From Podarcis pityusensis (lineage: Eukaryota), in the NCBI GenBank assembly GCA_964106645.2, contig OZ067039.1: a stretch of 64,000 bases of DNA, one strand, 5' to 3'. A program made the position numbers and the translations under genes. The notes below the pieces were generated by a model that saw only the letters and a program-made list of their open reading frames with translations, did not search any database and was not told the origin of the DNA. Position 1 is the first letter of the stretch; each line of letters opens with the position of its first letter. Below are positions 362 through 33,515 of this stretch, one piece after another.

Positions 362-3176
362 TAGGTCTTCTTCATCTGGTTGCATATCTGCTTGTAGTGT
401 TGAAGGGTAACCCTGCTAAGTCAGAGGCATGGAAATTGCTGAGGAGGGCAGAGCACCTCAAGGACTCTTCCACCTGTCCTCTTGGTGTGCCGTTCCATGT
501 CTTACACAACCATTGCTTTCTGCCGCTGTGGCTGGTTGCATTTATTCCAGCATGCTCATTAAAAAATATTTTAAGCTTTTGTGCTGAACCCGTCAGAGAT
601 TTGCCTGCTGGGATGACAAAAAAAAATAATCACCTGATCTAATGAAGCCTCACCTGCACAATGTTTAACCCTTTCTGTGTCTTCAAAGGTGAGAACCTGT
701 TTGTTTTTTAATGCCACAAATTAAGATTCCTAACTTCTTGAGAGCTTGGAAACCTGGCAACTTGTCTGCAGTTAGTAGGTCTACCCTGCTCTAAGTACTT
801 GGTTTCTACTACTGCCTACAAGTCAGTCTAGGAAGGAAATTTTTTGCTCTACTTCTGCTACATATCACATTGATGTATTTGATTTGGATTGATTCAGCTG
901 AATTGTTGTACTGTGAAGAAGAGTCTCATTATTTCCTTTGTTTTTCTGCTAGAAATGTGTTAACATGCACCCAATGGATTTGCAGTATGAACAGTAGTTG
1001 TTGTGAACTTTTGTCTTTTCTGTAAGTCGGGTCTAGAATAATTGTTTGGATTTACAGAAATGGCATGCTTAATACTCAGTTTGAAGCATTTTCCAGCCAT
1101 GTGAGATGTTGTTCTTCCTGGGTGCATCATTCGTCTACCTAGTTCAGTAAGCTGTCTTTGGCAGTAGTCAAATCTGACTGCTCTCAGAGGAAGTGACTAT
1201 GTTCTTGCTTTGTGATCTGAATGATGATAAAGTGTTGGCCTGCAGAGAGGCTTTCTGAACTTTATGAAATGCAGATCCTCTTTGCATTCTTAGTTAATAG
1301 TTCAGAGTTTCAGTTCTTAAGCTGGTGCATCTCAGCAGTTTCAGCAAAGAGAATGGACAATGGTGGAGGGTAGTTTCCTCATGGACAACCTTTGTGTGCA
1401 TGTTTTGCTGAACATTAGTGCAGAAGATGCAAAGTTGGTAGCCTGTTCCTTTAAGGACTTTGTACAAAGCTGGCACCATGCCCAGCCTCTTCTCTTCTTC
1501 TTCCCACTTCAAGGCTGTTCCTTTGGGGCTTTTCCTGAAACAATACCGCAAGCTACCCTGCCACTCTGCTTGCTCTGCTTGCCCTGCAGACAGTCTCTGA
1601 ATCAAGAGCCAGCTCTGCTTTGAGGGACAATGGAGAGTTGCAGCACAGGCAGAATGAACTATGCAGCCTGAGTCTGGATCTGTGCTGAAGGCGTAGAGAA
1701 CAAGGCTGTCGTCTGGAAACAGCGATATGGAAACTGAACCCCGTAGTCCTCAGAGTATGTGGGAAGGCGACTCCGAATTCAGCTTCCAGTTTTGGACCCA
1801 GCTTTTTCTGTGGATGCACTTGGTTGGCCGGTTGGTCACTTACGTCCTGCGTAGCTTTGGGGGGCTAAAGCAATAACTCCTTCCTGTCCCTTATGACTTG
1901 GTTGTTCTTTGGAGGTCCACTGTGACATCTAATATTTTTAGAGCTCTTTGGCAAGCAGTCCTATGAGGAAGAGACATCGCCCTGTATTTTTTCTTCTTTC
2001 CTTTTCCTTACCTCCATTCTTCTCTGTTCTGGATGGCCTTGCCTAAGAAAGGCTTCTTAACCTTGAGAGAAGGACAAAGTTTTAGAAGCAAGATTTCTGG
2101 TTTCTCTTCCCATGTTTATCCACACACTCTGGACTGTGCAGTAATCTTTTGCTTCATTCAGAGAATATGAGCTTTTGGGGGCTGCTTAGCAATAGAATCC
2201 AGAAGTTATGAGGACTGCCATTCTGCAAATGAATGTTCACCCTTGGAATGTTGTATTAGTGCTTAGAAAGAGTGATTTCTATCTCCAGAACATGGAGCAT
2301 CCAAGGGGATATGGGCTTGAATGAGATCCTACTTTGAGTTTTGGGGGGCCACACCTTGTCATATTCCATCTACAGCATCAGAGGTTTGCTTTGGTGTGCT
2401 CTAGTTTCATCAAGTTATCTGAACATCTTGGTCCCTTCCAACTCTACAATTCTATGATTCTATCTCAGTCTCCCTCTCTCCTTCAATTGTTTCTTCTTTC
2501 TGTTAAAGAATCACCTCGTTTTGGAAGATAATAGGGCTCCCCTACCTGACAATTTCCTTATTTGCCCTACCTTCAGCCCTGAGGGCAAAAGAGATTCGGA
2601 GAATTTGTGAGCTATTTTAAGCCTCATTGCATAGTCCTTGCTACTGCTGATCTGGCAGGCCTTCCTCCCTCTGTATTAATCAAATCTGCCTGCTGTTCAC
2701 CCTCTGATCAGCTGTGTAAGTGACCAGGCTCCCTGTATTTCTTTCTAAACAGAGAGAATATGGAATGAACTGTCTTGGAGCTTTTCTGAGCCTTAGCGTG
2801 GGGGCTTGGGAAAACCTGATATGGATGGCTGCCCCAGACTTGTTGCTGAACTGACATGAATGCTATAGTCCAGGGAGGTGGGTTTGATGGAAGTCGAGAG
2901 CAGTCGGCTCAAGCCAAATGCCTGTGTGAATCAGTTGGAGGGGAATGTTAAGAGCTCTGCTGAATCTGGGACTGTGTCTGTTCTCCAGTTGCTGCCTTTA
3001 CCCCTCTCTTCCTGTGGCGGGACAGGAAAAGCAGTGCCGCTGCCTCTACCTGTTGGCAAATAGCAATGACTGAAGAGAGTGCCCTCCTGGATCCTGATTG
3101 AGCTGCTTGGCTGTGTTTGCTCCGAGAGCAGAGCTGGGGCAGAGGAAAAGAACCGGTGATAAAATAAAAGAGAAAC

Positions 3177-3366
3177 ATGAGCCATGGAGCTGAGGTGAAC
3201 TCTCAAAACTCCAGCAAGGACAAAGGGTGTAAGATGTCGGCGCTACAGAAACTGGAGAGTCTGGCAGGGCGGATCTTTTACTGGGGGCCACGGAGTGATG
3301 CTGGGGCACCGAACGTTGGGGAGGCAGCCTATGAATCTGAGCACACGGCAGCCTGGAATGAGCAGA
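3177..3366 (+). CDS. PRKACA: PRKACA alternative first coding exon, long N-terminus (CalphaL-type, homologous to the Cbeta2 N-terminus)
   Basis: ATG with A at -3; 63 codons + 1 nt, then donor CAGA|gtgagt (3367). Phase 1 joins exon 2 as A+TG = Met (…AAWNEQ-MKEFLAKAK). ALQKLESLAGRIF and SEHTAAW match recalled human Cbeta2 ALQKLEGFASRLF and SEHTALW. Confidence 0.85.
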
Positions 3367-3773
3367 GTGAGTTGACAAGGGAGCACGGTTTCCAGGGGTG
3401 CCAGAATCGGTGGGTTCCCCCGAGGCTCTGCTCCAGAACTGCTGCTGTTCTGTGCCTCTTGGTGCATGCATATGCTTGTGGTTAAGTGTGTAACTGGAAT
3501 CTGAAATAGGGCTCTGATATTTTTCAGAGAAGCCCGCAAGTGGCTATAGCCTTAGCTCTGACAGCCATTCTGGCTATGACTGTTGACTACCTCTTTCCTC
3601 AGGCTAAGCTAAAGTTTAGGGTGCTCAACTTTAATGAGGCCACAGCTGCTTGGTGTGTGGCTTTGATTTTGGCCTTAGAGAAGCCCCATCGGTTCTCAAA
3701 AGCCCACTGCAACTTCTTACTATTTGTTATCATCTTTACAAGCTCTAACTCTACAAGTGTCTATTGCACAGCG

Positions 3774-3910
3774 TAGAGGTGGGGAGCCTGTAACTCTCCC
3801 AAAGTCGTTGGGCTTCTGCTTCTATCAACCCTGGCCCAAATAGCCAATAGGAAGGGATGATGTGAGTTGTAGCCTAGTAACATTGGCGGGGCACAAGTTC
3901 CCCATCCCTG
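3774..3910. mobile_element. Degenerate hAT-type MITE (family with CAGGGRTGGGGAACCTG ... CAGGTTCCCCAYCCCTG ends)
   Basis: Ends TAGAGGTGGGGAGCCTG / CAAGTTCCCCATCCCTG; internal GATGATG..AGTTGTAG motif shared with other copies (about 15785-15915, 16018-16150, 18018-18100, 32184-32290). Confidence 0.55.
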
Positions 3911-4659
3911 ACCTAGAGAAAGGCTAGCTGGAGCGTTCCTGGATGTTCTCCCACATTTTGGGGGAAGAATTGCAACTTTTTGGGAAGTTGTTGGCAAATG
4001 TCATTATTAAGAAGCAAATTCTCTTTGCCTGTGTGTGTTTCAAAACTTTCTTCCCATTTTGACAGTTTTTCCTCCGGCCTCTCCAACTGATGTTGTCACT
4101 TTAGCTGTTTTGGTTAAAATGTGTGGTCAGAGTTGTTGACATAGGGAATTTCAGTCTGAGGTTGACAGAGTTGTGAGTGAAAGTCATGGGCTGATGATTG
4201 TTGCTTTTTCCTCTTTGCTGCCACTACCAGTCAGGATTGTAGCTTTTGTTGTTGACTTGATGTGATGTCATATTCTATTTCTGTCACTGGCTGTATCTTA
4301 ATTCATGGTGTTGTCTACCTCTAGGGTGATGGGTCGTAAATAGATGGTAGGTCTTCTATTGTTCTGTCTGGACCACACATTACTCCTTCATCTAAGGCAA
4401 AAGGGAGTGAATGCAGTCTTTTCTTGGATCCTCAAGTATGTTTAAACAAAACTGTCACAATGTTTTGGCAATGCTGCTTAGTCTAAAATAGAAGCTTGTA
4501 GAACATCTGATGCCAGATTCTTCTTTGGCCCCTTTAATCTTTTGGCATTGACACCTCCTCCATGCTGCATCTGAGTGTGTTGCACATGAAGGAGAGTGTT
4601 CAAAACCACCAGCAGCACATTTTGGAACTATTTAGCATATACAATACACATGTAGATTC

Positions 4660-5250
4660 TGTTCAACATTTACATGAAACTGCTGACAGAGGTCATTTGT
4701 AGATTTTGGCTGTGGAGTCATCAGTATGCAGATGACAGCCACCTGTCTCTCATTTTCATTTGTTCCTGTAAGATAGTTGAAAGGCTGAATCGCTGTCTGA
4801 TATCTGTGATGGACTGGATAGGGTGCAATGAGGGGAAACATAATTCAGACAGAAGAGGTACTGTTGGTAGTTGGACCATGTGATATGAGATTGTTTTTGC
4901 AGCCTGTTATGAGTGGAAAGTGTGAAAGTGCAGGTACTTAGTTTGGGGATGCTCCTTGATCTGGGTCCTGTTTCTGCAGGTGGTGAGGGGTGCCTTTTCC
5001 CGGTATCACCAGGTGCAACAGCTACCATCCTCCCTGACACAGGGGAATCTTGCCACAGTCATTCATCCTCCTCTAGTGACCTTCAGATGACAGTGCTGTA
5101 ACTGTTTATGTGGGGCTGCCTTTCAAAAGTGTTTGGAAACCTCAATTAGTTGCTGCTAGAATGCAAGGCACTTTGAATCTGTAATGAATGTATATGAATG
5201 CTGATTCTACATGATTTTCACTAGCTGCTGATTAGTTTTCATGTTCAGTT
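4660..5250 (+). mobile_element. L2-clade LINE remnant (reverse transcriptase YADD region and downstream)
   Basis: ORF 4674-4883 reads MKLLTEVICRFWLWSHQYADDSHL...LNRCLISVMDW, the typical L2/CR1-clade RT segment; disrupted downstream. Boundaries approximate. Confidence 0.75.
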
Positions 5251-8200
5251 GCCTTGAACCCTCTTGTGAGGAACCCCAGGCTTTTGCCAGAGTTCGGCCT
5301 GCTCCAGAGAGGGTGCTCACCACACAACACCCTGCCTCTTCTTAGCCAGGCAGATAATAAATCAGAACTCCAGCTAACACTGCACAACTCTCTGGGTTCC
5401 TGAAGACCAGAAGGTCACTGCAGGGCCGGTCCCTTTGCATCAGCCAATCCACCCAATCTAACACACAGCAAGGCCATTACCTGTAATGCGCATCTGCCAT
5501 CAGCTCTGTCTTCTTTTGGTTTTTTATTTATTTCAAGATCAGAGCACTTGGGAAATGTGAAGTGCTTCCGATCTCCTCCGATGTTTCCAAAATTGACAAG
5601 CCAATTGGAGCAGCTCATTTCAACAGTATAATGTAAGACAGTAGGGGGTCATTTTGTTGCTGCCATTGGCAAGGATTTCTAATCCTTAGTTTTTTAATAA
5701 TCTACTATAAATCCCTTGGGGATCTGTTAGTAGAGTATCTTCAGCCCACCCCTGGCCTAGAGCATAAAAATACAGGGTAACGTCATGAATGATTGGTGGC
5801 TATTTAGCTTCCTGCATAGTTTCATTTGAATTAACTAATTAAGCAACTGCAGTAGGATTAGATTTCTCTGGATCTCTCAGTGATCCCTGTATTTCATGTT
5901 TATTAAATCCTCATAAAGAAAGCATGCTAGTTAAATCAGGGTGGGTTTTGTCTACCCTGCTAAGCACTGAAAAATTTGTTTCTGTTTTTCAGAGATGTCC
6001 TTTCAAACAAGGTGTTCTCTAGATTTGTGTCATCTTCTCCAGAACTGTTGACTGGATTTGCTTGCCTACCTTGCCCTGTCCAAATCCAGGTTTAAATGTG
6101 ACTGTCTTTGAGCTTATATTAGCTTGGCAACCCTAAATGCCTAAGCAACAATAAACAAGTATGTTACTTGTCAACCACCTGGCATCCACCCACTGGGGAA
6201 GATGCATAGAGTGCATCTGTCAGTGAAATTTTAGGCCTTAAGCATCTGTGCCCTTAGAGCTAGGTTGGCTGGCCAATTTCATTTAAACAAGGATCGACTA
6301 TGAGTTATTGGTACTCCTGGCTGAAACGTGGCAGACTTCCTATGTTGATCACTCCTGCAAGCTTAGTGTTAGCAGGACCAGTTGCTTCTCCAGGTCTCCT
6401 AAAGCCCACCAAAGCCTTCCCATGCCAGTTATATAGAACAGATGTCAAAGGGACTTGTAATTTGGGCAACACATGTTGTCTCTATTCCCAGGGATTCCCT
6501 TCCCTCAGTAACAGTCAGATGCATAGTTAAAACCAGTGCAGACTTGGAAAGGTTGGCAGCTAGGTAGAGCTGTTTATGAGAAATTCCTGCAAGATTTGTG
6601 ATGTACGCATTCAGTGAGATGAATTATGTTCCCAAGTGTAAATATGTTCAAGTGGTCTGGTCCTTTGCTTCCTAGGTCTTGGTACTGTTGATTTAAGAAT
6701 ATTGATTTCTCCCACTGTGCTTTAGGCTCTAGGACAACTTGAAAGATTAGTTCGCCTCTCTTGAAGACAAGGCATAAAGCAGCAGCAACCCCACTTCTCC
6801 GTGTGGCCTGGTTGATGCAAGGACTGCATATTATTCTCATGGCAATTGTGCATCTAGTGTTGCAGGAGAAATGTGATTGGTACATGCATTGAATGGTTAT
6901 CTCGTTAAATCACAGTGCAAGAAGGCATTGCTGCTTTTTCTCTCCCTCTCCCCGCCCCCTTTCCTTTGTACCTTCCCTATCTTATGCTATGGCAAGTTCA
7001 CAACACTGTGGAATAGAATGCCACTTTGAAGCCTAAGTTGGGCTGGCACCCTCGGCTCTGCAATAGCTGATGGGCAAGCGCTAAACAATAGCTGGTGGGA
7101 GGTGCTGTTTGACTCACTGCTTGCCTGCTAATTTTGGTTCTTGGCCTGAATCGGCTGCAGTTTCCTATTGAGCGCAGCCGTGTTAGGGACATGACTGGCT
7201 ATTCAATCTATTCCCAGGGAAATTGATTAGGGTCACTGTGTTCTGGGCCTCTGGCAAAGCTACTTTGTCCTTCATCTTCTAGACCACTGGGGCATTGTGG
7301 TTGAAGGGTAGAAAACCAGTGTCTCTCTCCTGTAGGTGGGCCTCTTACAGAACATGACAGACTGGTATTAAAGCAACCTGTAGCTGAGATAAAGGCTTCA
7401 GAATTAAAGAGAAGATGAGTGCTCAACCTTTTTTCTCTGGGTGCTGTGTTAAATTATTCTGACTGCACCTGTACACTCATAATTATTACATAATTCTGTT
7501 TTGAAGGCACTGAAGAATTCAGCAGAAATTGCGCTCGCTCCTTTCTGCTTTGATACTTTGTGTTCTTGCAATATGTCTCAAGGTACCTCCTCCAGTATCT
7601 AAAATGTCTTCATTCTGCACATATAACTTAGTGGAAGATGTTCCCAATGAGCTTCTTGCCTTAATTTTGTAATTTTGATGCTTTGCTTTAGGGTCTTATA
7701 AGCACAGCAATAGAGGGGCAGTCTGTTGCCATCCACTTTTGTCACCTACTTCCCAAAGCAACTTCCCTGGACTGCATTTGCTACTGTCAGTAATTTTTGC
7801 CTGCCTAGTTGAGGACTTGAGCACTTAACATTGCCTGTCTTTGAACCTCATCTTTCAGGTAGTATTGCAAAAGGGCAAATTACAAACTCTTTGATCATCG
7901 TACCACCTACCAACAAAACTTTTGTCTTTTTTGAATTGGGCTACATTTTATTGGTCCGTCGGGCAGCTGCTCACAACATCTACTACTTCACTGGAATAGA
8001 TTTAAAAGGAGAAAAATAACTAGGTGTTTTCAGCATTTTGATGGCACCTGACTCCAAATTCCTGGATGATTTTCCTCAGCTATGCCATTTAGATGTTAAA
8101 CAGCACGAGAAACAAGAAGGATCCTCCAACATCTTCTGGAATCAGCCAGTCAAGTGGAAAAAGAACTAGAAGAGAGTGGTATCTCTTATCACATGTCCGA

Positions 8201-8784
8201 TAACAGATCTAGAAGTATACCAAGAGAGATGGTATGAAGAGCCAGTGAGATGTCCAGGAGTATCAGTGGTTCTTGTTTTTAACCTGTAAGCCGCCTTGAG
8301 TCCTGTCAGGAAAAAGGGTGGGATATAATTAAGTATATTACTATAAAAATATATCATCAAAGCTACCCCACACCTCCCTCCTCTCTCACATACAAATTCT
8401 TTATGGTGACCAAAGCAGCATTGGTAGCAAAACTTGGCCAGAAGAAAGATTGATTAGCTAGATTTGAGAAGCCACCACCCTCTCAAACCCCTTGCCTCTC
8501 CTCCTCAGTCCACACATCTCACCAGCCCTGCTTCACGCCTTCCTCAAGTGCTTTTGCTGGCTGGAATGCATCCTTGAACTGTGATGATCCCATGTCCTCG
8601 TTGGGATGGAGCGATGTGTACTTTTGCATGGTCAGCTTCTGCATGATGTGGCTTCTGCATGGTCAGAATGCATCCTACTATACAAAGGTAGTAAGGGCTG
8701 CATCTGTCGCTCCACCTACTTATTGCTTCTGGTCCTGCTTCCTCTCTGGAATACAGATCTTGGAAAGCTGCTCAGGAGGGAACA

Positions 8785-8930
8785 AGACCCAGGTTCAAGT
8801 CACTGCTCAACCATGAAGCTCATTGGGTTGTCCTGAGACAGTAGCTCTTCCTGCTTAACTTACCTTACAGGGTACTTAGGAGGATAAAAGCTGAGGGAGC
8901 AGGGAGAACCATATATGCTACTCCCTGGCC
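8785..8930 (+). mobile_element. Old tRNA-derived (MIR/CORE-like) SINE fragment
   Basis: GACCCAGGTTCAAGTC (B-box-like), then CCATGAAGCTCA.TGGG and TACCTTACAGGGT, shared with copies near 14440-14650 and 27290-27440. Confidence 0.5.
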
Positions 8931-10900
8931 TTCCTTGAAAAATGGAGTATAATTTAAAAGCAACTGTATGGCAGGAATCTTTCAGCCATAAAGGAAGGAA
9001 TATTATAGTGGGACTGGGTGGGAGGTAGGAATGGAATGGTCACTTATAACACTGCACCTATCCAGTGGCAGGTGCTGGTAGCATTTGCTCAGCCCCATTG
9101 CACACAGTAGTAATAGCACCAAAGACTCCTATGCACAGGAAGAATTGCTTTTCCCAGGCATAAATAGTAAGTGCCATCACTGGCAAAGTGCAGTAACTCT
9201 TGGAACAGAAGCGCAGCTTCTGAGAAAGGCATCTCAGCTGCACATGACATGAGTTGCAACTGCATACTCATTGCATAAAAAAAAAATTGAAGGGCCCTAA
9301 CAAGAGACTTGTGCTCTATGGGCTCTATTTTTTTTTTTTTTAAAAAATGAGCTGCATACAAGCAGATGATCATAGCCAGTGCTAAAGCAGTGAATGTACT
9401 TTGTGGAGACTCTGCCCCCTGCCACTGCCCACAAGCACAGAATGGGATCTGTGTGCATAGAACGCCAACTGGTGACTATTCTGGAAGTGAGCCAGGGACT
9501 GGCAGCTTGAATGCCAGTGTTGAATGGTGTCATTGTTTCTTATTGATACACCTGCCCAAGAGCCATAGATTTTGGAAATGCAAGAGAATGAAATTCGCGA
9601 GGAAAAAACAGTGTCCAATCTTAAGTGAGAAAGGGAGCAGTATTATGATAGAAAGGGTTTGGTGGCTGCTGAGAGGAGAGAATCAAGACAGCGAGAGCCA
9701 CAGCAAAACTCCAGATTCCTCCACTGAGCATGTAAGCTTCCACGTTGGCTGCTCCCAGGACTGGACTGCACTAGCAAAAAAATTCCATATCAAGTAGAAG
9801 TACAAAAGCACTTTTGCCATATTTTAAATGGAATACATAAACAGGGTTCCTACTTGTTCTCAACAAACTTCTCCTTCAGAAAGTTAAGGAAACAATGAGG
9901 GACATGCTATTTTTAGATCAGAATCTGACTAATAGGAAGGAAATGTTTGAGTCTGTGAAAACAGTTGGCTATGTAAAAGAAAGTAACTATGAACTGCTGA
10001 AGTCCATGATCCTGAAATAGGAAGAGGAAGGGCAGCAGAATAGCAATGAATGTTTAACAGCTGAAAGCTTCAAAAAGAGCATTAGCTTTTTGAAAAGTGT
10101 TGGCTGGAAAAATGTTTTGAAAGGAGAATCTATGATAGCAATCAAAGCCTGATGTTCTTTCCTAATATGATCAGGGCAGGAAATGGAACCTCCAAAACAA
10201 AGTTGAAAGGAAGTCAACCTACCTTAATATCTGCCTCTGACTGATGGTTCAAATGGGGACATCTTGCATTGCTTCTACTGTCTGACCCTTAGAGAAAGGG
10301 AGTTCTGTTATGAGATATGCAGCTGCCTGGAACACCTGTGTTCTCCATGATTGCAAGTCATCATTTGGTGTGGCATTCTTGGGGTCTTCTGGGAATCTCT
10401 TTTGTGCCACCCCTAGGCATTTTGCTGCCTCAAGTAGAGCCCGAATTATGTCTACTAGGGTCAGCATTTTAAAATGCCTTTGCCACCTATTCAGGCACAG
10501 ATTCTTGCCTTCATCCATCTCTTCATCACTGCCCCTTTGGTGCCACATACAGCAGAACTCTACCTTGTTACATGGTAGGCATGGTCATGATTCCCCCCCC
10601 CCTTTTTTTTTTGAGATCATAAAATCTAAAAAAGATGGCATGTAGGGCTCAAACAATTTCAGACCAAATAGGTTTAAAAAATATGTAACTGTGCCTGCAG
10701 CACTAAAGGAAACCATTACTCACCTTGGAACCTGTTGGTAATTGGCCTTCTAGGGTAGTCTGATCCATCAAGAAGTATACCATGCTGTTTTGCCTCCAAC
10801 TATAGTCCTTTGCACTACTTTACAGGTGAAACATTTCCATGTGCGTCTGAAGGTTGGAAGGATGTTTGCCATGTCCGAAAGTGGGGTAGAAATAGATTTT

Positions 10901-10993
10901 AAAAATAAAAAAATTGTCCAGTAGCACCTTAGAGACCAACTAAGTTTGTTCTTGGTATGAGCTTTCATGTGCATGCAGACTTCTTCAGATACC
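10901..10993 (-). mobile_element. Penelope-like retroelement terminal-repeat fragment
   Basis: GTAGCACCTTAGAGACCAAC...GAGCTTTCATGTGCATGCAGACTTCTTCAGATACC resembles reptile Penelope-like terminal repeats (recalled) and carries a hammerhead core on the minus strand. Confidence 0.6.
10954..10993 (-). ncRNA. Minimal type I hammerhead ribozyme motif (degenerate helix II)
   Basis: Minus strand reads GGUAU CUGAAGA A GUCUGCAUGCACAU GAAA GC UC AUACC. Helix I is GGUAU/AUACC, core CUGANGA and GAAA, near-palindromic helix II, minimal helix III, UC cleavage site. Confidence 0.7.
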
Positions 10994-12729
10994 TTGTGAG
11001 GTTGATGGATTTGCATTTCATGCGGCTTAATGTGGTGCCTTCCATGGTTCTAGATTCAGGTAAGTGTTGGTCTGATGCAGTAGAAATATATAAATTAAAA
11101 ATTGTCCAGTTGGGTAGTCACCTTCCCATTGAACAGACTTCAGTAAGAAGTGCTCCTGAAATGAAGAAAACCAAGGACTGACGCCATCAGTTGTTTGACG
11201 GTATCTCCCTCCCTTCCAGTATTCTCGGAGCCTGCTGACCATCATTCCTTAAGACACATTCAGAACCTGGCACTTTCAGACAGAGCCTCCCTCCCATATG
11301 CTGCCAGAAACCATTGGATGCTCTTCACAGGGGCTATTACAAAATTCTGAGGCAGACTCAGCCAGCTGATGCCCGAAAAGCAAAAGCTGGGGGGGGGGGG
11401 GTTGCTTTTGATCTATTCTTGCTTATGAGACGCTCTGAGAAGGTTGGGCTGATCTTTGAGCATCCTCTGTATGGAGGTTATCTTTAGCTCAGCTACCAAG
11501 CAGTCGTTCCTTCTGAAATCACTGTACTGCTTTTCTCTTGAGAAATTAGTCCAGCTCTGACTTGAGGGAGCAATGTGAAGCCTTGGGCCTTCTGGCATTT
11601 CATTGTACTTGTGCTGGATAGGACTCCTTTTATCCCCTCAAATATATATATGTGTGTGTCTATGTTGTAGATTTCATTCTACTTCGTATTTCCATGTGAG
11701 TCCTGCTACTTATCTCTAGCTACTTCTGTTGGGCCACCACCTCGAGAGAGTCCTGTGCTGGATAGCTGCATATGCTTAATCTTCTAGTAAATTGGCAATT
11801 GCGGCGTAGCTGTCATGCCTTATTATCTCACTGGTCATCACCTGCAAGCCATGTAAACAAGCCACTCTCCTCTCATCCCTTGGTATTTTCTTTTGGATTA
11901 GGAGCTGCTCTTGTATAGGTTACTTTAAGCCTGTGTTAACCTGTTTCTATTAATGAAAAGAGACACAGGGCTATCTGTTCTTGGCAAGCATGTGCTTGAA
12001 CTTGCTTTCTGTTCTGGTGTTTGTTTGTTTTTAGGATCTGCTCTGGGGTGGCTGGGTTAAGAGGCGATTCCTTTTCAATCTTTGGGGCTTCCTCTCTTTT
12101 TCAGCAGCCGCATGGCACTTCACTCACACACATCAAAGTAAAAACCTAACAAGTAATGAGGGTGAGTGAAGCAGGAGCTCAAGGTGGAACTGAGATCACT
12201 AATGGCAGAATGAAAATCTTACGGCTGGGCTGATAAAATGTTTTCATTCCGAGGGAACAAAAGAAAGGGTTTCTCTCGGCACCAGCTGGAGACCTGGGCT
12301 TTTACTTTCTCTGCTTCCTTGCCCCTCTTGAGGAATAGAAAAGAGATGTCTAGGCACCACTTGAAAACAAGCAAAAACACAAGTTGCCTAATAATGCAGG
12401 CTGGTCTTGGCTTGGGTCAGTTTGCAGGGCATGGGGGGAGGATCTACGGCAGCCTTTTGTGATAGGCTTGTGAATGAGCTGCCTTTGGTGACTGGCAGTA
12501 TCTTTCTCGCCACCTCCTCCTCTCTTTCTCTTTGCATTGCCATCATGTGATCCCCTGCCCCCCTTCTCCCCCCCCCCAGTATTGTTTCGTAACCAGCTGT
12601 CCCACTTACAGAACAGTTGTTTCTGGACTTCGGGGAAGTGTTACACTGGGGGGGAAATGGTTTGCACAGCATCTGCGATGACTCTCTCGACCTCATCTCT
12701 AGGCAGAGGCCACGTTGGCATGGTCTAGT

Positions 12730-13220
12730 TCAAGCCTCGCTGCTCCACTTGGAATCTCAGGAGCTCCGTGTATTGTGGATCTTCAAGGCGGAGCCTGCTG
12801 TGTCTGAATAAGCAGCAGGTGTTCCAGAGGAGCCTTTCCAGGTGCTATGGTAGATCACTCCTGCTGGCTATAACGGTGGCCTACACTGATGCAGTCGAAG
12901 GAAAGGGAGAGAAGGCGAAACAGGCGTGCCCTGGAGCTGCGCTCAGCCCTTTGCTGGCTGGGGACTCTCTTTCGCTTCCAGGAGAAGTTGAGCTCCAGGC
13001 GGGGGCCGTGTTTGCTTTTGCCACCGGGGGCAAAGTCCCCCATGAGCCGTCGGGTCAGCCCTTCCCCGCCACCCGTTTTGACCTTTTAACTGTATGGTTG
13101 CAGCTGCGGAAACAGCCGGGTCACCAGGTGGACCCTTGGGGTTGAGGGCCACCGAATGGATGGTAAGGAACCACGGGGTCCTGGGTGGCTGAACGGACTG
13201 CTGTCTGCTTTCTCCCTCGC
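12730..13220 (+). promoter_or_regulatory. CpG-enriched patch, candidate internal PRKACA promoter / 5'UTR
   Basis: Visibly higher GC and CpG density than the CpG-depleted flanks; GC-box-like CCCCGCCACCC near 13064; ends at two ATG+donor mini-exons. Confidence 0.5.
13156..13162 (+). CDS. PRKACA: Candidate PRKACA short first exon, coding part ATG GAT G (MD-VKEFL...)
   Basis: ATGGATG|gtaagg, phase 1 compatible with exon 2; in-frame upstream stop at 13087-13089; at the end of the CpG-enriched patch. Confidence 0.45.
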
Positions 13221-13256
13221 TCCCTGTGTTTATTAGACAGCTGCTTCTTTCAAGGA

Positions 13257-13263
13257 ATGTATG
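13257..13263 (+). CDS. PRKACA: Candidate PRKACA short first exon, coding part ATG TAT G (MY-VKEFL...)
   Basis: ggaATGTATG|gtgaga, G at -3, phase 1; 101 bp downstream of the first mini-exon. Confidence 0.35.
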
Positions 13264-14434
13264 GTGAGAAAAGGGCTCTAAAGACAAAGACACACATGGA
13301 TCTATCTGTGACGCTGAATGTGGCACAGTAAATTTTTGAGCAGATGGGTTTGTACTCACATGCAGCCCCTACAACAAATCAGCTCTGACTGTCATAGACA
13401 TATGTAGAAACTATTTAAATGGTTAGCCTTGGGGGAGTTATTCCTGATGAATTATGTTTCCACTAACTCCAGAATTTATCCCCTTTTATTTCCAGTTAAA
13501 GAACCTTGAGCGTTGAACAAAAGATGCTCAGAGCTGCTGTTTTCTCTCTAAGGGTACCATTTTTGCTTTATGAATTTGCAGCACGTCGTAGTTTGAGCTG
13601 AGCTTTCTTGCTGCTATTACCATCCTAATTGCTGTTTTAAATGCTTATATGAAGGAAGAATCTGCCAGTTTATTCTAAGTAGTAGATTCAAAGCCTCAAA
13701 AATCAAAGGTGTTGGCATCATAAAGAGTATGGAGGGTCAATTAGGAGAAATCTAAGGATCAACATGCTCAAGAATGTCTCCTTGCTGACAAGCCATCTAA
13801 AGCACATTCTGATAACTTTCACCCAGTCCATTGGGCATGATTGTATTTAAATAAAATGTCTAGTCCTCAAGGTTGTGATGAAGTATCAGAAATAGCTGTT
13901 TAGATTCTGCTAAACACTAAGGATATGGATGAGCCTTCTGCTGTCATGAAGCAGATTTTCTTGTTTCCTGGAATTCTAACATTTTATCAGTATTCCAAAC
14001 TCATGGGAATGGCAAGGGTGAAGAAGGCTCATCATTTGTGGGGTAGGAGGAAAAGCTTAAACTTCCCTCTGTCTTTTTTTTTAACTGACTGGCTTCCTAA
14101 TGGTGCATTTAAGTGTTACATCTAATTTGGCTTTCAGTGACAAATGGCAGGTGAAAACATTTTCCCCTGGAAACCTATGCCTGCTCACTTTGACCACTGG
14201 TCTTCTCTAGAGGCCTTTCTTTCTCCCCCTATTAATATCTGTTGTTACACCTTCTGACCTGGTCACTACAGTCTCAGTTATAGGGTGAGGGGCAGCCTAT
14301 TGGTGAATAAACTGCACCATGCTTTTTCTCAGAAACACTGTCCTGTCACTTATTAGGACCATGTTCACAGATGTCATGGCTGAGCTGAGATGTCATGAGA
14401 CTTCCGGTTTCAGCCCCCAATGAAAAATAGAGTC

Positions 14435-14665
14435 ATTGTGATGTAGTGTTACTGTATTGAACTTTGACTGGGCAGACCCTGGGTTCTAATCCCCACTCAG
14501 CTATGAAACCCACTGGGTGCCCTTGGATCAGTGACTCTTGGCCTAATCTGCTCACAACTTATGTTAGTATAATTGGAGGAAGGGGGATAATAGAATTGCG
14601 TAGGGTGCCCTGAGCTCCTTGGAAGAAGAGCGAGATATAAATGTAATAAGAAATAAAAAAATAAA
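14435..14665 (+). mobile_element. tRNA-derived (MIR/CORE-like) SINE
   Basis: A-box-like TGATGTAGTG, B-box-like GGGTTCTAATCCCC, CTCAGCTATGAAACCCACTGGGTG core, A-rich tail around 14640-14665. Confidence 0.6.
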
Positions 14666-15740
14666 TATTTCATATCCTCAAGAGTATCACAACCAAAATG
14701 AAATTTGCATAAATCTGTCCCATGGTTGATTCCAATTGCAGGCATTGGTTTACTGGTCATAGGATATTTCTTAGAAGGGTTGAGGGGGTGGGGTTATAGA
14801 ACCAGATTACCTGTACTTGGCCTAGAAATTAAGGGCACATGCACACCATACATCCCAACACATATTTAAAGCGCATGACTTTCCCGAAAGAATCCTGGGA
14901 ACTCTGTTTCTCCCCCCCCCCCCCAGTACCTTCAACTATATATTCCAGGATTCCTCGGAGGAAGTTATGTGCTTTAACTGTGTGTTGGTTGTTCTTTAAG
15001 GGTGTGGCATGGATCTGCCCTAAATCTGCTAGTCTGTATCCCATCCTTTTTCTGACTTGTTTTCTATACTAGAGAGATTACAATGGCGTCTGTTCCTGTA
15101 TAGCCACTGAAAAAGACAGGAGAATGCAAGGCAGTGTATTGATAACATCTGGCTGGCCTGTGCTTGCCTATGGCCAAGGCTCTTAGGATGTTTAAGATCC
15201 CTCTGAGATAACATACAAGTTACGCACCAAAGCCAACACTTGCCCCTCAAGAGACTTGTTAGCCAAATGATGATGCTTTTTCATTGTTGTTTTGGAAACC
15301 TTGTGAGGAGGGAGGCCCCTTGTGTTGGAGAATATATTGGTTTCCGTCTCCAGTTGTCAGCAGTGCAGGAGCGAGATTAAATTCTAATTTCATATCTAAA
15401 TTAATGCTGAAAAGACCCAGAGTGATAAAGTGGTGAAACAAAACCAGTAAAACATTAAATGAGGAACATTGAGGTGGCAATGTTCAGATGCAGCAGATCA
15501 GTACAAATAAGAATCCCACGCAGACTGCTTCCCAACAGTCCTGCAAAAAGATGTTTTCCTTGCATTTCTAAAATGTAACCGTGAAAATCATTGCCACACT
15601 TCTTCTGGGAACTCATTCCAAACCTGCTGGAAAGGTCCTACCCCTTCCAATTGAAGTTTAACTTCTGGAAGATGGGGATTTTTATCTGGGCCCAACCAGA
15701 AGTTCCTAATGGGAGGCTAGTGTATGTGTGTCAGGAACAC

Positions 15741-16160
15741 AGGAAGCTACCTTCCACCAAAGCAGACAATTGGTCAATCTAATTTAGGGATGGAGTCCAT
15801 CTGGCCCTCCAGATGTTGGACTCCATCTTCCATCAGTCCCAGCTGGCATGACCAATGACCAGGGATGATGAGAGTTGTAGCCCAACAACATGGATGGCCA
15901 CAGGTTCCCATCTCTAGTCTATACTGACTGGGAGCACCTTTCCAGGATTTCAGACAGGTCTTTCTCAACCTACTTGGAGATACTAGAGATTGAGCCTGGA
16001 GCCTTCTGCATGTAAAGCAGGGGTGGGGAACCTGGGGCCCTCCAGCTGTTCTTGGACTTTTGACTCGCATCAGCCCCAGCCAGCATGGCCAATGGTAAGG
16101 GACAATGGGAGCTGGAGGTGAGCAATATCTGGAGGCCCAGAGGCTTCTCAGTCGCATGTG
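15741..16160 (-). mobile_element. tRNA-derived squamate SINE (minus strand) interrupted by two hAT-type MITE copies
   Basis: SINE pieces AGGAAGCTACCTT...GGTCAATCTA and CTGACTGGGAGC...CCTTCTGCATGTAAAGCAG, separated or followed by MITE copies at about 15785-15915 and 16018-16150. Confidence 0.6.
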
Positions 16161-19100
16161 CCCTCTTGCTATACAGGTGTCCCGTCCCCCCCTTAGGCAG
16201 GGATTGTGTTTCAGGGCCCACAGACATAAGCAAAAATCGTGTAAGTGGGGAGCACCCTCTAAAAAGCCTCTGAACGCCTGCTTTTCCCTGCTCTCCAGCT
16301 CTCTCTACAATGCAGACTGAAATATCAGCTCTGGGGCTGGTTGGAGGCTGGAGGACACGCAGGCAAGTAGTGGTGGCGGCGGCGGCTGCAGTACCCCGCG
16401 CATCAGCTGTTAGGGAGGGAGGCTGTGTGCTCGGGTCTCTTTGGGGCTTCCTCCGCCGTCACTGATGTCTTTTTCAGGCTCTGGGGAGGGTCTCCTCACA
16501 AGCAACAAGGACTGTTAGCTCTCTCCCACTATTTCCTGCTTTGAATTTTTTTATTTATTTCCTGGCACTGCATGTATATGCATTTGTGCACATGTTTATT
16601 GCCTGTAGTCTTTCCCCCTTGTATGGCCAGAATGCCTAGTAACCTACAGTTACTTCAGCTTCCCTTCTGATAGGGAGTGCAGTTCATCTCCTTGAGCAGC
16701 CTGGACCTTGTTTTTACTCCATGCAGAAGATACCATCTGCCTGGGAATGCAAATGGTGCCATACCAACAATTATTTGAAGCATGTGTGGTTCCACAAAAT
16801 GCGTTCCGTAAATAACACTGGGGCTTTTATTCCCTAGTGCAGATTTTCTTTTGTATTCCCTTCCATTTGTTTATTCTTAAGGCGTTTATATGCAGCTTAA
16901 TCATAAGCATTTCCACCAAGTATTTTGTGAGAGGACTGCGACCTAAGCTGCAGAGCAGCTAAAATAGCATTTGGAGGTGGCCTTCTCCATAGGAAGCACA
17001 AAATAAGTTTTTTTTTTTTAAAAAAATACAGCACGTCCATCATACGATGCTCTAATTTGCCATGCTCATGAAAATCATATGCAAATTGTATTTCATGTGG
17101 ATTAGCACTGAACTTTCAGCTCCTGCAGCTTTTCTCGAGGTGCCCCTCTGTCGAAGAAGGTGCTCCACCTTGGCTGTTGCTTTGCTGATCTCCAAAGTGC
17201 AGAGAGAAAAGAGGTGAATTTGTGTGTCTGGTGAGAGCAGCTTCTGCGTGGTGAATAAGCCTGATGGGAAAACTCTTTGAGGACGAAGGCGTGCATGGTG
17301 GAGATCGGCGCTGTTAAAGAGAGTGCCTGCCTATGTTGCTTGAGTGCCCTGTGCTCAGTTTAGCTGCCAGCAATGCAGCCTAGTAGTTGTGTTTTGGATA
17401 CAGTGGGAGAAGAAGGAGTAATCTTTGAAAGATTACTAGGGCTGCATCTCTATTAGTCCCCTATGCTCTGGTGTTTATCTTGGCACAGGTCAGTCTGTGA
17501 GGCTCTTGTGCAATTGGACATGGTCGATTAGTTCCATAAGCTGGATTCATGGAGTCTGACCAAGCCAATGTGAATAGAAAATGCCTTCATCGGGTTCACT
17601 GTTTAAGGGGTGCTCTCAGCTCAAATGGTGTAATGGAGAGTTATTTCTGTGGCAAGAGATGCTTTTAACACCTGGGGCTTTGTCGTAATGAGGCAAATGG
17701 TGTGTTTCTGCTCTTTCCCCCTTGTTGCTTCTATTCAGCCAACCAATTTCTTGTTCGGTTTTCATCTGCAATTCTGGCTGCAGCAGTGGTTGAAGATGTG
17801 TGGGGAGGGGAGTATAATTAGGAAGGGAAATGGCTGGAGAATCCAACCCCCTTGGGCCAACCCAGTCTTGTATACAGTATACTGTCTCTCACAGCAGCTA
17901 GCGTAAGAAACCTATTACAAGAAAGGTAGAAGAGCCCTCTAGTGGTCATAGAAAGGATGTTTTCACACATATATTGCGTATCTTAATCTACAACAGAAAT
18001 TTTCTGAAGCCCTAAAGCTGGGCTGGGGAGCCTGTGTCCCCCAGAAGTTGCTGGACTATAACTCCCATAATCCCAGACCATTAACCATATTGGCTGAGGC
18101 TTATGAATGGCCCACTTTAACTGATTCTGCAGCCCCTCCGTATGCACTCCAGATCTCATGAAGGGAACCCTCTTAAAGGAAGCAAGGGGCACCCAAAAAT
18201 AAAGTAATGATTTCTGCATACTCAGAGGACTCTCTGGGAGACATGCAGAAGTATGTAAGTTTGTGAGCTGAAAGAGAGAACAACTTTTTGAAAAGAGAAA
18301 AAAAGCATTGTGGGCATTTTAAGACCTTTGGGATGTCAGTGACATACAGAAAAATAGACTATTTACTGGTGCAGTTCATCTCTGTCTGAAGAGGGAAATT
18401 CTAGGTTCATGTTGCACCCCAAAAGTAAGAGGTGCTGTCTTTTTGCTGCTAGCCTCTTCTGGGAGGGGGTTGGGATCCAGGGTGGGGTCCATGCTGCTGT
18501 TGCTGTCCATTTACAGCAATGTTAAAATCCTGGGTTTCCTTCATTGTTTTATGTGAGCAGCTCTTAGTTCTGCCCTGGAGGATGGAAAAAGTGGGTCAGA
18601 TTGGAAGTTGGGCATGCTGTGTTAGTCTAGCAATTATGTCTATGGCTGCAGGCTGTTGAGCCATAGAATGATGGTGTCAGTTAAAAGTGGCAAACAGAGG
18701 GGGAGGTTGGGGGATGCATGCCATGAGGCTAAAATATTTTCACCCTATATATTCCTCTATTTTGGTAATTTTTTTTTAAAAAAAGGTGCTCGTACTCATG
18801 TCTTGATAAAAGTGCTGTGGGTACCAGCACCAAATGGCTGCCTTGGCAGCAAAAGGTGCCTGCACTCCATATTGGTGAGTGCTGTCCTCCCAGAAGCAAT
18901 ATATACACACATGCATACATAGATCTCAATAAAATGCTTGGATTCAGGACTGGCAACCAGCCCTGAACCCTGGGCAAGTTAGCATTTTAAAGCAGGCTCA
19001 GGGAATGTTTATAACATGTGGGAAAGCAAAAATATGTGAATCTTGAATAGTATTGCTGGCCTCCTGTTTCAGGCTATGTGGAACCCTGAACATTTAGAAT

Positions 19101-19507
19101 TATTTTTTCTGGATGCCCAAGTAGCTGAATTAAATCCAAAGGCGTGCCAGATACATTAAAATTGAGAAAAGGTGAAGCCCATTCCTTTGTTTTTCAGATC
19201 TAGCAAAAAGATTGTAAAATGCTGACCTACAGCTCCCATCATTCTTGACTGTTCCTGACCATTCTGGCTCAGGCTTATGGGAATTGGAGCCTAGTGACAC
19301 CTGGAGGGCCACAAAACTTAGCAGAATGCTGCTGCCTTTTGCAAACCTGCTTCAAAGCATTCTGGTCAGTGAGAGTGCTTCAGAAAGGAAAGCTGAATCT
19401 GCTCTTCCCCAGCCTTCTCAACTCAGGCTTTGGGTACCATGGCCACAGAATACAGCTCTTCGTGTTGGGTCTGTAATAGAGGGGGAGGGAACAGCTGTCT
19501 TTGGAAA

Positions 19508-19700
19508 GGGCCATAGCTCAGTGGCAGAGCATATACTTCTGTGTGCATTGAAGGTCCCAAATTCAATTGCTTGTACCGCTAGCAAGGTTGAAAAAGTGTC
19601 TCACCTGCCACCCTGTGGAGTTGCTGGCAGTCAAGTGTTGCAGGCAGTGCTGAGCAAGATGGGCCAGTGGGCTGATTTTGGCACAAGACAGCTTCTACTA
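19508..19700 (+). mobile_element. tRNA-derived squamate SINE (Squam3-like)
   Basis: GGGCCATAGCTCAGTGGCAGAGC (A box), GAAGGTCCCAAATTCAAT (B-box region), body GCTGGCAGTCA...AGATGGGCCAGTGG...GACAGCTTC. Family name from recall. Confidence 0.65.
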
Positions 19701-19870
19701 CTTAGAAAACATTTATTAGATGTGCGTTCCAGCACATAAGGCCTCCGCTGCACGGAGTTCAAATAATGGTTTAAAGCAAATCTATCAAATAAGCCGCTAG
19801 ACGAAATTTCATGAAATGATAGGGGCCATTAGTGTGGGAGATGAAGAAAATGTGGGTAGAGCTTGTTGGG

Positions 19871-19880
19871 TTAAAAATAG
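19871..19880. promoter_or_regulatory. MEF2 consensus site
   Basis: TTAAAAATAG fits YTA(W)4TAR. Confidence 0.3.
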
Positions 19881-20012
19881 GGCTAGCTGAACATGCCCAT
19901 GCCTGCCTTGTACTGTAGGGGAGTGCTCAGACTCCCAATAACTTTTTGTTTCTTAAAAAAAGAAATCTACAAAATGGTGTGAGCATTTCTTCAAAGGCAC
20001 TCTTCAAGCTGG

Positions 20013-20040
20013 ATGATTCAGAAGCACTGCAGAATGGCAG
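20013..20040 (+). CDS. PRKACA: Candidate PRKACA alternative first exon, coding part (MIQKHCR)MA-VKEFL
   Basis: agaATGGCAG|gtgagc: strong Kozak at 20034, strong donor, phase 1; in-frame weaker ATG at 20013; in-frame stop at 19980. Confidence 0.3.
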
Positions 20041-20171
20041 GTGAGCTTCAGAGTGAGCGAGTGCCTCATGTTCCACATTGGGACACACAAACTCCTGCAC
20101 AGACACTGATGGGATCTAAATGAGCTGTCACTACTGCCAGCGAGGTCTTGGGGTCATGGTAGAAAGCGCAG

Positions 20172-20179
20172 TGACGTCA
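20172..20179. promoter_or_regulatory. Full palindromic cAMP response element (CRE)
   Basis: TGACGTCA with retained CpG in a CpG-depleted region. Confidence 0.4.
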
Positions 20180-20229
20180 TCTCAGAGTGCTGGCACAGTG
20201 GAGGAAAAGCAAATCTGATACTGGGAATT

Positions 20230-20820
20230 ACTATAAAAAGGGGCTGAAAATGAAATGGCAAGTACACCAGGATGAGACTCTGGTATGGCTGTGCTTGGAA
20301 TGCCAATGGAGTTCTAGTGGCCTGGTTTTGAAAAAGAGATCACAGAAGGGGAGGAAAGTAAAGAAATGGGTGGCTAAAGATATTCAGGTGGATGGGACTT
20401 CCTTCGAAGAGAAGTTTAGGCCGCACACTTATTTAGTTCACAAAATCAGGAATGGTGTGAAAGAGACCAAAATATTGGAGTTTGAAGTTCTCTAATACTT
20501 TGACAGCAAGTTCAGGACAAATTAAAGCAAGCACTGTTTTCAACTTATGGAATTCATCCCACAGTTTGGAAGGCCACTAACACTGTCATTGTCACTGTCA
20601 ACTGGAATAGGTTTAGCTCCCATAGATGGGTCTATCAATGGCTGTAGGTCATGGTTTGCAGATGCACTTTCCTTACCAGAGGCAGCGAACAGACAGAGGA
20701 TGATTATTGAAATCATGTCCTAGTTATCAATTTTCCAGGGGTATGTGGTTGGTCCTGGTTAGAGACCATATACTATACTTGATGAACCTAGAATTCTGAT
20801 CCTGCAAGATTATTGTTGCC
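20230..20820 (+). mobile_element. Old CR1 LINE 3' remnant
   Basis: Degenerate CR1-like segments (CACAAAATCAGGAATGGTGTG, TTCAGGACAATTAAAG, ATGGAATTC, TCTATCAATGGCT, ACTTGATGAACC...CTGATCC). Boundaries approximate. Confidence 0.45.
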
Positions 20821-21117
20821 AACATCCAACAAGAGGAAATTACTTGCACTTTCACACTTGTATTACGTTTTCCCAAGGAACTCAAGGTAATGTATGTGGG
20901 ATTATCAGTTTTTTCCTCCCAGCAGCCTTGTGAATTAAGTTATGTTGCTTGTGTGATTTCCCCCCGCCCCGCCCCACCCCGCAAAAAGACCCCTTCAAAA
21001 CCATTGAGCTTCATGGTTCAAATTCAGTTATCTAGCCACTACACCACAATGACTCTTACAGTGCCATTTGAAAGCTGGGAGAACAGGAGATTAGCACATC
21101 ACAATTATAGCCTTGAG

Positions 21118-21427
21118 CAGGGGTCAGCAGGGGGCTGGTCCACTGTCCCTCAGACCTTGTGGGGGGCTGGACTATATTTTTTTGGGGGGGGAATGAATGA
21201 ATTCCTATGCCCCACAAATAACCCAAAGATGCATTTTAAATAAAAGCACACATTGTACTCCTGTAAAAACACCAGGCAGGCCCCACAAATAACCCAGAGA
21301 TGCATTTTAAATAAAAGGACACATTCTACTCATGTAAAAACACGCTGATTCCTGGACCGTCCGTGGGCCGGATTGAGAAGGCGATTGGGCCGGATCCGGC
21401 CTCCGGGCCTTAGTTTGCCTGTGCATG
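21118..21427. mobile_element. hAT-type MITE with internal 71-bp-period tandem duplication
   Basis: Starts CAGGGGTCAGCA, ends AGTTTGCCTGTGCATG; GGGCCG-rich subterminal motifs; flanked by GCCTTGAG / GCCCTTGAG (near-8-bp TSD); GCCCCACAAATAACCC..GATGCATTTTAAATAAAAG.ACACATT repeated at 21209 and 21280. Confidence 0.8.
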
Positions 21428-21842
21428 GCCCTTGAGGCCCTTGAGGAATGATGCAAGTTCACTGGGCAAGGAATTGTACAGCGGTCAGTAATGATGAGAC
21501 GTGGTCCAACACCATCTGGTAACCCAAGAATGAGAGAGGTTGTCTTAAGGAATTTTTTTCCTGTTCCTGGTGGCCTATCTAAATTTTAGCCAAAGTGGTT
21601 TTTTAAACCACAGTTTCTCTTATTTGAAATATACATATTGATGAGACAGTATTGCATCTTTCTCTGATTTGGCATGTAAATGCACATGTTTGGATTGCAA
21701 TGCAATGTCTTGAGTTTTGTGTGCCATAACTTGGAAGCCCATATTGCTAGGGGATATCAGCTTCATTATGGAGCCAGGCGAATGTTCAGGGCTCACTTTC
21801 AGGCAAAATAAACTCCCAGCCCCTAAACCACACTCTGAACCT

Positions 21843-22210
21843 AACACTAAACCAAGGTTTATTAAACTATGGTGTATGAAACAACGGCTTAGTGTTTTGT
21901 GCAAAGCCTGCCTAGTGGCTTGACTATGGTTTGTTTACTGCTAACAAACCATGATCTGAAGCTGTGGTTCGTTGCTGGTTTATGACCCTTAGTTTGTTGT
22001 AATTAAGTTTTGCAACTCTCACCAAGCCAAACACCCTTCCTTAACCATGGTTTGTTTGGCCTCCCCACCCCAGATGCTCACTGAACTACAAAGGCATGAG
22101 TTGAGAGCAGCTGAAAATTGAACCAAACTTTGGAGAAAAACAAGCCATGGTTTGCTTGCTCATCTATGAGACAACTCGTGGCTTGTTTTAACAAACCGTG
22201 GTTTAGTGTT
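21843..22210. mobile_element. Non-autonomous DNA transposon remnant with AAACCATGGTTT-type repeats
   Basis: Inverted ends AACACTAAACCAAGGTTTATTAAA vs reverse complement AACACTAAACCACGGTTTGTTAAA; several internal CCATGGTTTG motifs. Confidence 0.6.
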
Positions 22211-23166
22211 CTGTGTGAACCAGGCCTCTGTCTGGAGAACAGAGCAGCCATCAAGAAGGCAGAATTGTTCCCTCCCTTTGCCTAGACCTCAAGACAGGGT
22301 TGATGGTTTAGAGTGCAGTTGGAGGCTCTTGGGCATGACGCAGGAGCAACTGACGGCCTGAGGTTAGATGAGATCATAGTGCTCAGCCTGGCCTTAAGGC
22401 CTGTGGTGCTCTGTCGCTGTCGGGGGTCCCTCATGGCTTATGGAAGAGGTCAGTGTTCTGGAGATGGGGAGGGGTGATTGCTGCCCCTTTTTGGAGGGGG
22501 GCCCATGGAGCTAAAATATAATGCTGAGATGGCCCTAGGAAGGGGGGAAGAGCTGCCAGAATTTTCTTACGTGGCAAAAGAAATCTCCTTGAGGAGTGGG
22601 GAGGGGGCTGGGATCTGTGCAGGAAGGTGTAAGCTGGTGGCGCTCTGTAAGTAACGTGGATAAAGCAGGAGACAAAGGGAAAGTAGGTCAGACAGGCTGA
22701 GCTGCAGCTCCACGTCTGTTTGTGTGCGTGTCTCGGGGAAATCCAGCCGCTCTGCTGCAGCATGAAGGAATTGGGTGGGAGGATTGCTGTGAAGGTTTGG
22801 AGTGGGAGGATGCTATGAAAGCATCCCCAGACTGCGCCTGGCCATGTTCCCTTTGTGTCAGGTACCTCTCCTGTAGGAAATAAGAGGCTGGTGCAAAGCA
22901 ACCTTATTTCAGGGGCTCCTCCATTTTACGGTCTTCTGATCTCATGCCAGGAGAAGCTGCATCTCCATGATGGGAGGGGGGAACTGAAAATGAGCTTTTT
23001 CTGGTGAATGCAGGGGCAGACTTCACATTCTGAACTGGGAGCCAGGATCCCTGGAATCTGTAGTCAGGCTCCATTTCTTTAGATGGTAGCGAACTCTTCA
23101 GCAAATTTACCCTGGCTGAGGAGTGCTTGCTCGGCCTTTTCTGCTTCTCTTTGCTTTATGCAGATA

Positions 23167-23416
23167 CAGTCGTACCTTGGATCCCAAATGCCTTGAAACT
23201 CGAATCTTTTGGCTCCCGAACCCTGCAGACCCGGAAGTGAGTCTTCTGGTTTGCGAATGTTCTTAGGAAGCCGAACATCTGACGTAGGTTCCGCGGGTTC
23301 CGATTGCGTGCAGGAAGCTCCTGCAGCTAATCAGAAGCCGCGCCTTGGTTGTTGAGTGTTTTGGAAGTTGAACGGACTTCCAGAATGGATTCCGTTCGGC
23401 TTCCAATGTATGACTG
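23167..23416. mobile_element. Tc1/Tigger-type MITE
   Basis: TIRs CAGTCGTACCTTGGA / reverse complement CAGTCATACATTGGA; TA duplication at 23165-23166 and 23417-23418; retains many CpGs. Confidence 0.85.
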
Positions 23417-23589
23417 TATATGCTGTGCTTGGCCCCAGTGGATGATGGGATCTTGAGGGCTTAGTTTGTAAGGTTGTTGTTTCATAGACTCATAGAGGTG
23501 GCAACTGCCAACTGCAGTATTGTTGATAGGTGGCCAGCCAGCCTACTGTTCTTGATGCTGATATTTAGTTGTTTTTCTCACAGAGTGAC

Positions 23590-31153: not shown

Positions 31154-31243
<90 letters not shown>

Positions 31244-32349: not shown

Positions 32350-32526
<177 letters not shown>

Positions 32527-33239: not shown

Positions 33240-33515
<276 letters not shown>

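Follow-up and report, generated by a model that had tools for sequence, protein, structure and literature searches.

Positions 3177-3366 of the window, the 64-kb stretch of Podarcis pityusensis DNA analyzed here, are a genuine spliced alternative first exon of reptile PRKACA that encodes CalphaL, and we regard their identity as PRKACA exon 1-L as close to certain. The isoform is already known. Soberg et al. described PRKACA exon 1-L and CalphaL "for the first time" in 2017, in species including Anolis and Alligator, recognized the paralogy to PRKACB exon 1-2 and reported that exon 1-L was lost in mammals and birds (PMC5526564); the window exon is the lizard ortholog of that published isoform. 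A sequence-only reading of the stretch had given the name CalphaL, which matches this paper, and had called the isoform class "probably known": known it is, while the "probably" has to go, since the 2017 paper already covers the exon and its phylogeny, offers both hypotheses about the motifs and includes Anolis (PMC5526564). The same reading had assigned CalphaL to non-eutherian vertebrates, which is right in placing it outside eutherians and wrong about its limit, for the reported loss extends to mammals and birds.

Recomputation returned the coordinates and counts first proposed for the exon (63 codons, a GTGAGT donor, phase 1, a 23.4-kb intron and a 399-aa product). From the ATG at 3177 the frame stays open for 63 codons and one base up to 3366, with the GTGAGT donor starting at 3367. 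With an in-frame TAA upstream at 3165, translation in this frame can begin no earlier than Met1. Exon 2 at 26797 is preceded by a pyrimidine tract and CAG, and a codon split A|TG across the 3366/26797 junction creates Met64. Exon 1-L spliced in silico to exons 2-10 (62, 129, 99, 83, 127, 96, 123, 165 and 126 nt) gave 399 aa with one terminal stop; a donor shifted by one base, to 3367, left 20 stops in the spliced frame and was rejected. Residue 2 is Ser and there is no N-terminal Gly, in agreement with the non-myristoylated form that had been proposed. All features are collected in Table 1.

Table 1. Features of the PRKACA locus in the window (positions are those of the window)
Feature	Position	Strand	Details
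PRKACA exon 1-L, 5' untranslated part	2601..3176	+	spliced contigs begin at 2601, 2770, 2876, 3023
PRKACA exon 1-L, coding part	3177..3366	+	190 nt, 63 codons + 1 base, phase 1; open frame, GTGAGT donor, spliced contigs, orthologs
Met20 and predicted helix segment, residues 20-37	3234..3287	+	conservation, AlphaFold helix 22-34
Trp60 motif (second motif), residues 54-60	3336..3356	+	Trp in 9/11 records; PMC5526564
Intron after exon 1-L	3367..26796	+	GT..AG, 23,430 nt
PRKACA exon 2	26797..26858	+	62 nt
PRKACA exons 3-10	28712..38722	+	intact kinase core
PRKACA exons 3-6	28712-28840, 28939-29037, 31160-31242, 32376-32502	+	
PRKACA exons 7-10	33022-33117, 33264-33386, 36326-36490, 38597-38722	+	
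SAMD1 start (downstream neighbour)	46222..46944	+	Pfam SAMD1_WH E 1e-27, SAMD1_SHD E 2e-15

The 3366-26797 junction, a check that had been suggested at the outset, was looked for in eight of the 24 sequencing runs listed as containing the stretch, runs whose RNA origin was guessed. In one read alignment, the exon 1-L contigs from four of four runs extended exactly to 3366 and then joined 26797: the 30 letters after 3366 were those of window 26797-26826, and one contig continued for ~318 letters. These four runs came from four studies and carried three organism labels, their contigs matching the window at 95-99% or more. We read the contigs as spliced RNA because spliced RNA is expected to produce just such a joint over a 23-kb GT-AG intron. 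No such junction was found among the loose ends listed for four other runs, in an alignment swamped by repeats. Contigs reading through the exon 1-L donor occurred in two other runs at low depth (8 and 4), and two raw-read runs yielded no reads in 2801-3600 from the ~12% of their reads examined. Separately, high-copy repeat fragments at ~190-360, 2429-2463 and 10900-11090 draw many unrelated reads, and database records (proteins P0003, P0018 and P0019) have exon 1-L mis-joined or read through at the donor, among them a contig ORF that continues past the donor with the residues of the window's unspliced frame.

To judge from its sequence, the host gene is squamate PRKACA because of its core signature, its place in the core tree and its SAMD1 neighbour, and the gene identity first proposed is upheld on all three. 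The kinase core carries K72, E91, D166, D184, T197 and S338 (Calpha1 numbering). According to PMC3625193, site 66 is the sole position without overlap between Calpha and Cbeta, being Gly in Calpha; residues called invariant in Calpha are Gln35, Thr37, Glu64, Gly66, His68, Ser109 and Glu334, and the Cbeta signature consists of Asp42, Gln67 and Arg319 with Glu, Asn or Asp at 66. The window core has Gly66 and six of the seven Calpha-invariant residues, Glu64 and Glu334 among them, and matches none of the three Cbeta-invariant sites (His42, Asn67, Lys319). The one departure is Tyr68 in place of the published invariant His68. Tyr68 also occurs in all three other named squamate Calpha records and in several Cbeta proteins; its presence in squamate Calpha indicates that the 2013 Calpha-invariant list, which predates known reptile Calpha, is not strict. 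His42 and Tyr68, both in exon 3 (28712-28840), are common to four of four squamate Calpha cores.

A tree of 15 cores (two of 17 rows were dropped as partial or gapped) split the six Calpha-named from the five Cbeta-named rows at 99/96 and assigned the window to the Calpha half, where its neighbours are Anolis, Sceloporus and Vipera. Downstream of exon 10 the window enters SAMD1, which presumably follows PRKACA in human as well. Identity as PRKACB was thus rejected by the core signature, the core tree and the SAMD1 neighbour alike. A CpG island lies at SAMD1 (45.5-47.5 kb), the island and the gene together spanning 45500-52545 on the + strand; farther along, 60974-61519 on the - strand is the terminal exon of a gene that matches Pfam BTBD8_C (PF15363) at E 3e-20.

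Protein searches starting from the exon peptide recovered orthologous tails from Anolis, turtle, alligator and sturgeon. An Anolis RefSeq protein matched with 84% identity over the tail (E 4e-27), and the Anolis carolinensis protein (XP_062826586.1 / XP_008102820.1) is 399 aa long, colinear with the window protein and identical to it at 384 of 399 residues; ten of the 15 substitutions fall in the exon 1-L part, five of them in the linker (residues 38-52), and 4-5 in the 336-residue core. A partial turtle record was matched in the same search. The matching cluster held alligator and sturgeon Calpha proteins with a CalphaL tail and four long Cbeta forms from frog and teleosts, and an exhaustive search added a squamate-like contig and a second turtle. 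The four frog and teleost records are called Cbeta2 by inference from a long tail on a Cbeta core, and they stood in for human Cbeta2 in the comparison. One turtle record lacks the Trp motif and another turtle keeps it.

The paralogy to the Cbeta2 exon claimed by the sequence-only reading, and published in PMC5526564, was borne out by shuffling. Against three of the four long Cbeta tails (frog, fish) the window tail scored at z ~10, a level reached by 0 of 5000 shuffles; for the fourth, 56 of 5000 reached its score. Controls gave 2091 (Vipera Calpha1) and 3206 of 5000, and BLASTP aligned the frog Cbeta with the window tail at 21/64 identities (~33%, E 5e-06). In a tree of the tails, the seven CalphaL rows separated from the four Cbeta rows at 91/89, a value below the firm-support threshold in a tree whose Cbeta rows come from frog and teleosts. 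Because the sturgeon groups there beside the reptiles and the frog beside the teleosts, the pattern suggests descent from before the Calpha/Cbeta duplication, in which case exon 1-L would be an inheritance of that age.

Resemblance to Cbeta tails, together with the occurrence of Tyr68 in several Cbeta proteins, could instead mean that exon 1-L is a later copy of PRKACB exon 1-2, made by exon transfer or gene conversion, or that the gene is a mis-assigned PRKACB. This is already largely refuted, and we consider it extremely improbable: the signature residues, the core tree and the neighbouring SAMD1 all point to PRKACA; the tail is only ~33% identical to Cbeta, while CalphaL tails form one group that reaches from lizard to sturgeon; and most vertebrate classes have the exon at the same place in the gene (PMC5526564).

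Conservation within the tail is uneven. The two conserved motifs that had been noticed from the sequence, residues 20-37 and 54-60, stand out in the alignment. Residues 20-37 are identical at 16-17 of 18 positions in all five other reptile records and at 8-9 of 18 in three of the four Cbeta records, and residues 53-63 keep 8-11 of 11 in four of the five reptile records; identity falls to 5-10 of 15 positions across the linker (38-52) in the other reptile records and amounts to 11-16 of 19 over residues 1-19 in the four other records having them. Phe34 is found in 11 of 11 aligned rows and Trp60 in nine, the two CalphaL records (of seven) without it being the sturgeon and a partial turtle prediction. 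PDB and Pfam searches gave no match to the tail beyond one chance hit at E 1.5.

These patterns bear on the idea that the exon is a vestige, transcribed and spliced without translation into a working protein. Its loss in mammals and birds (PMC5526564) would fit, as would the read-through contigs in two runs and the two raw-read runs without exon reads (~12% of reads). We hold this to be very unlikely, as the reading frame, the donor and the motifs have all stayed whole from lizards to alligator and conservation is highest in the two motifs and lowest in the linker. The four coding differences listed in two related species, small as the number is, point the same way, three being at third positions and one altering a linker residue.

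The tail was described by Soberg et al. as disordered with an inducible amphipathic helix, with K/R21 and F30 as key positions and Trp59 proposed as a lid on the myristate pocket (PMC5526564). Lys25, Phe34 and Trp60 of the window have the same spacings as K/R21, F30 and W59 of Cbeta2, and the distance from Trp60 to the junction Met that follows it is four residues, just as for the published Trp59 of Cbeta2. Structure prediction, another of the checks suggested, delivered one of the two motifs: AlphaFold of the tail gave a helix at 22-34 as the sole confident element (pLDDT 88 over 21-30), while the flanks stayed at pLDDT 49-60. The full-length AlphaFold model of the Anolis ortholog was of low confidence (mean pLDDT 37.8). 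The hydrophobic moment of the helix segment was modest, being equalled by 412 of 10000 shuffles.

Taken together, the best explanation, which we consider very probable, is that exon 1-L gives rise to the 399-aa CalphaL with a tail that is likely non-myristoylatable and is predicted to form a flexible tether with a docking helix. On balance we favour a docking or targeting role for the modelled helix itself. In this mechanism, exon 1-L would have its own promoter, and residues 20-37 would fold into an amphipathic helix upon meeting a partner or a membrane. Residues 55-63 would lengthen helix A, and Trp60 would cap the empty myristate pocket: Met64 and Phe67 correspond to pocket-lining Val15 and Phe18, and Trp60 precedes them by four and seven residues, which would turn it to the pocket face. 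By analogy with Cbeta2, CalphaL may bind R subunits and answer to cAMP, the tail altering the location, partners or stability of the kinase and not its catalysis.

For Cbeta2, PMC1557514 reports catalytic activity, and PMC3060122 reports inhibition by RIalpha and RIIalpha, a CRE reporter that Cbeta2 and Calpha1 activated alike, with no C-isoform effect seen by its authors, and a lower apparent stability of free Cbeta2 than of Calpha1, with stabilization by RIalpha. The equal CRE activation weighs against the favoured mechanism, as do the modest helix moment and the two CalphaL records without Trp60. A 2018 review repeats the CalphaL model (PMC6143667), PMC11438212 mentions CalphaL in passing and the passages of PMC8636463 consulted have nothing on the Cbeta2 tail. 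Our literature search, thin on subscription papers, found no protein-level, localisation or other experimental study of CalphaL.

The sequence-only reading had suggested looking for the transcript 5' end near 3000-3170; with spliced contigs beginning as early as 2601-2876, that end may sit farther upstream. The 5' UTR extends beyond 3000 in three of the four spliced contigs, whose ends cannot mark a transcription start. It contains ten upstream ATGs in 2701-3176, every frame of which ends before 3177, and a strong-context out-of-frame ATG at 3184 opens a 4-codon ORF; these uORFs and the 3184 ORF (2701-3198) may damp CalphaL translation. A low-depth contig (depth 4.4, one of four runs) joins ~2383 to 2753, skipping a 369-nt GT..AG interval (2384-2752) with a good pyrimidine tract. 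This interval is possibly a minor 5' UTR intron, which would imply a small upstream non-coding exon; extra 5' exons for exon 1-L are not reported in PMC5526564.

The upstream ATGs also invite a different account of the tail, in which it mainly sets the amount of kinase: uORFs would damp translation, and a disordered, unanchored tail would make the free kinase short-lived, with no targeting. The ten upstream ATGs in 2701-3176 speak for it, and so do the seemingly lower stability of free Cbeta2 relative to Calpha1, relieved by RIalpha, and the equality of the two in CRE activation (PMC3060122). It gives no account of a one-faced hydrophobic helix with a fixed Lys/Arg and Phe kept in both paralogs, and we judge it unlikely.

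A further alternative concerns the start codon. Met20 lies at the head of the predicted helix and is kept in seven of seven CalphaL records and in none of the four Cbeta records. For much of the protein, translation might begin at Met20 and produce a kinase of 380 aa that opens with the helix; Met would be removed and the exposed Ser likely acetylated, to yield a lipid-free membrane anchor replacing myristate. Such a start gains from the distribution of Met20, from the middling context of Met1 (A at -3, A at +4) and from the annotation of the sturgeon and one turtle record from Met20, although annotated starts are predictions. Several observations weigh against it: Met1 and the residues following it are conserved in five of seven records, residues 1-19 keep 11-16 of 19 identities in the four other records having them, the strong-context ATG at 3184 would catch ribosomes passing Met1, and Met20 sits inside a block that is nearly invariant anyway. 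The evidence for use of Met20 as a start is weak, and we give the proposal a low probability. Equally doubtful is its combined form, in which the CalphaL mRNA yields two kinases by dual initiation, the acetylated helix of the Met20 form anchoring without lipid and Trp60 closing the myristate pocket. The Met20 start and the uORFs go beyond the text of PMC5526564, whose Fig 2D alignment may show Met20.

Set against the CalphaL of PMC5526564, the window differs in species only among the features compared. Both have a long 5' exon ahead of PRKACA exon 2, a phase-1 joint and a reptile host, and both lack an N-terminal Gly, carry K/R and F nine residues apart and place Trp four residues before the junction. 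Cbeta2 (PRKACB exon 1-2) resembles CalphaL in its paralogous exon, its ~60-residue tail and its helix and Trp motifs, and the frog Cbeta record also has the junction Met. It differs in belonging to another gene, in its ~33% tail identity and Cbeta core signature, in having no Met at the helix start (four of four records) and in being kept in mammals and birds.

Within PRKACA, Calpha1 (exon 1-1) and Calpha2/CalphaShort (exon 1-S) share exons 2-10 and the phase-1 joint with CalphaL. The Calpha1 tail, in contrast, has 14 residues and is myristoylated, the short forms have at most 8 codons, and neither tail aligns with that of CalphaL (2091 of 5000 shuffles for the Vipera Calpha1 control). In the published gene layout, exon 1-L follows exon 1-1 and precedes both exon 2 and any 1-S exon (PMC5526564). 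No exon 1-1 motif was found on the + strand of the 64-kb window, consistent with exon 1-1 being placed upstream of window base 1. A pattern scan for short 1-S exons in the intron (3367-26796) gave 11 candidates, such as the ATGs at 11044, 13156 and 16085, which are probably mostly chance.

What the window contributes is a further lizard example, backed by splice evidence, of an isoform in print since 2017. We know of no demonstrated function for the tail of human Cbeta2, the lymphoid form of PKA. As the tails of CalphaL and Cbeta2 have been diverging from the time of early vertebrates, the residues they share mark those to test in human Cbeta2. If Met20 does serve as a second start, it would be a new lipid-free way of anchoring PKA, and CalphaL, since lost from mammals and birds, would carry its own replacement for the myristoyl switch.
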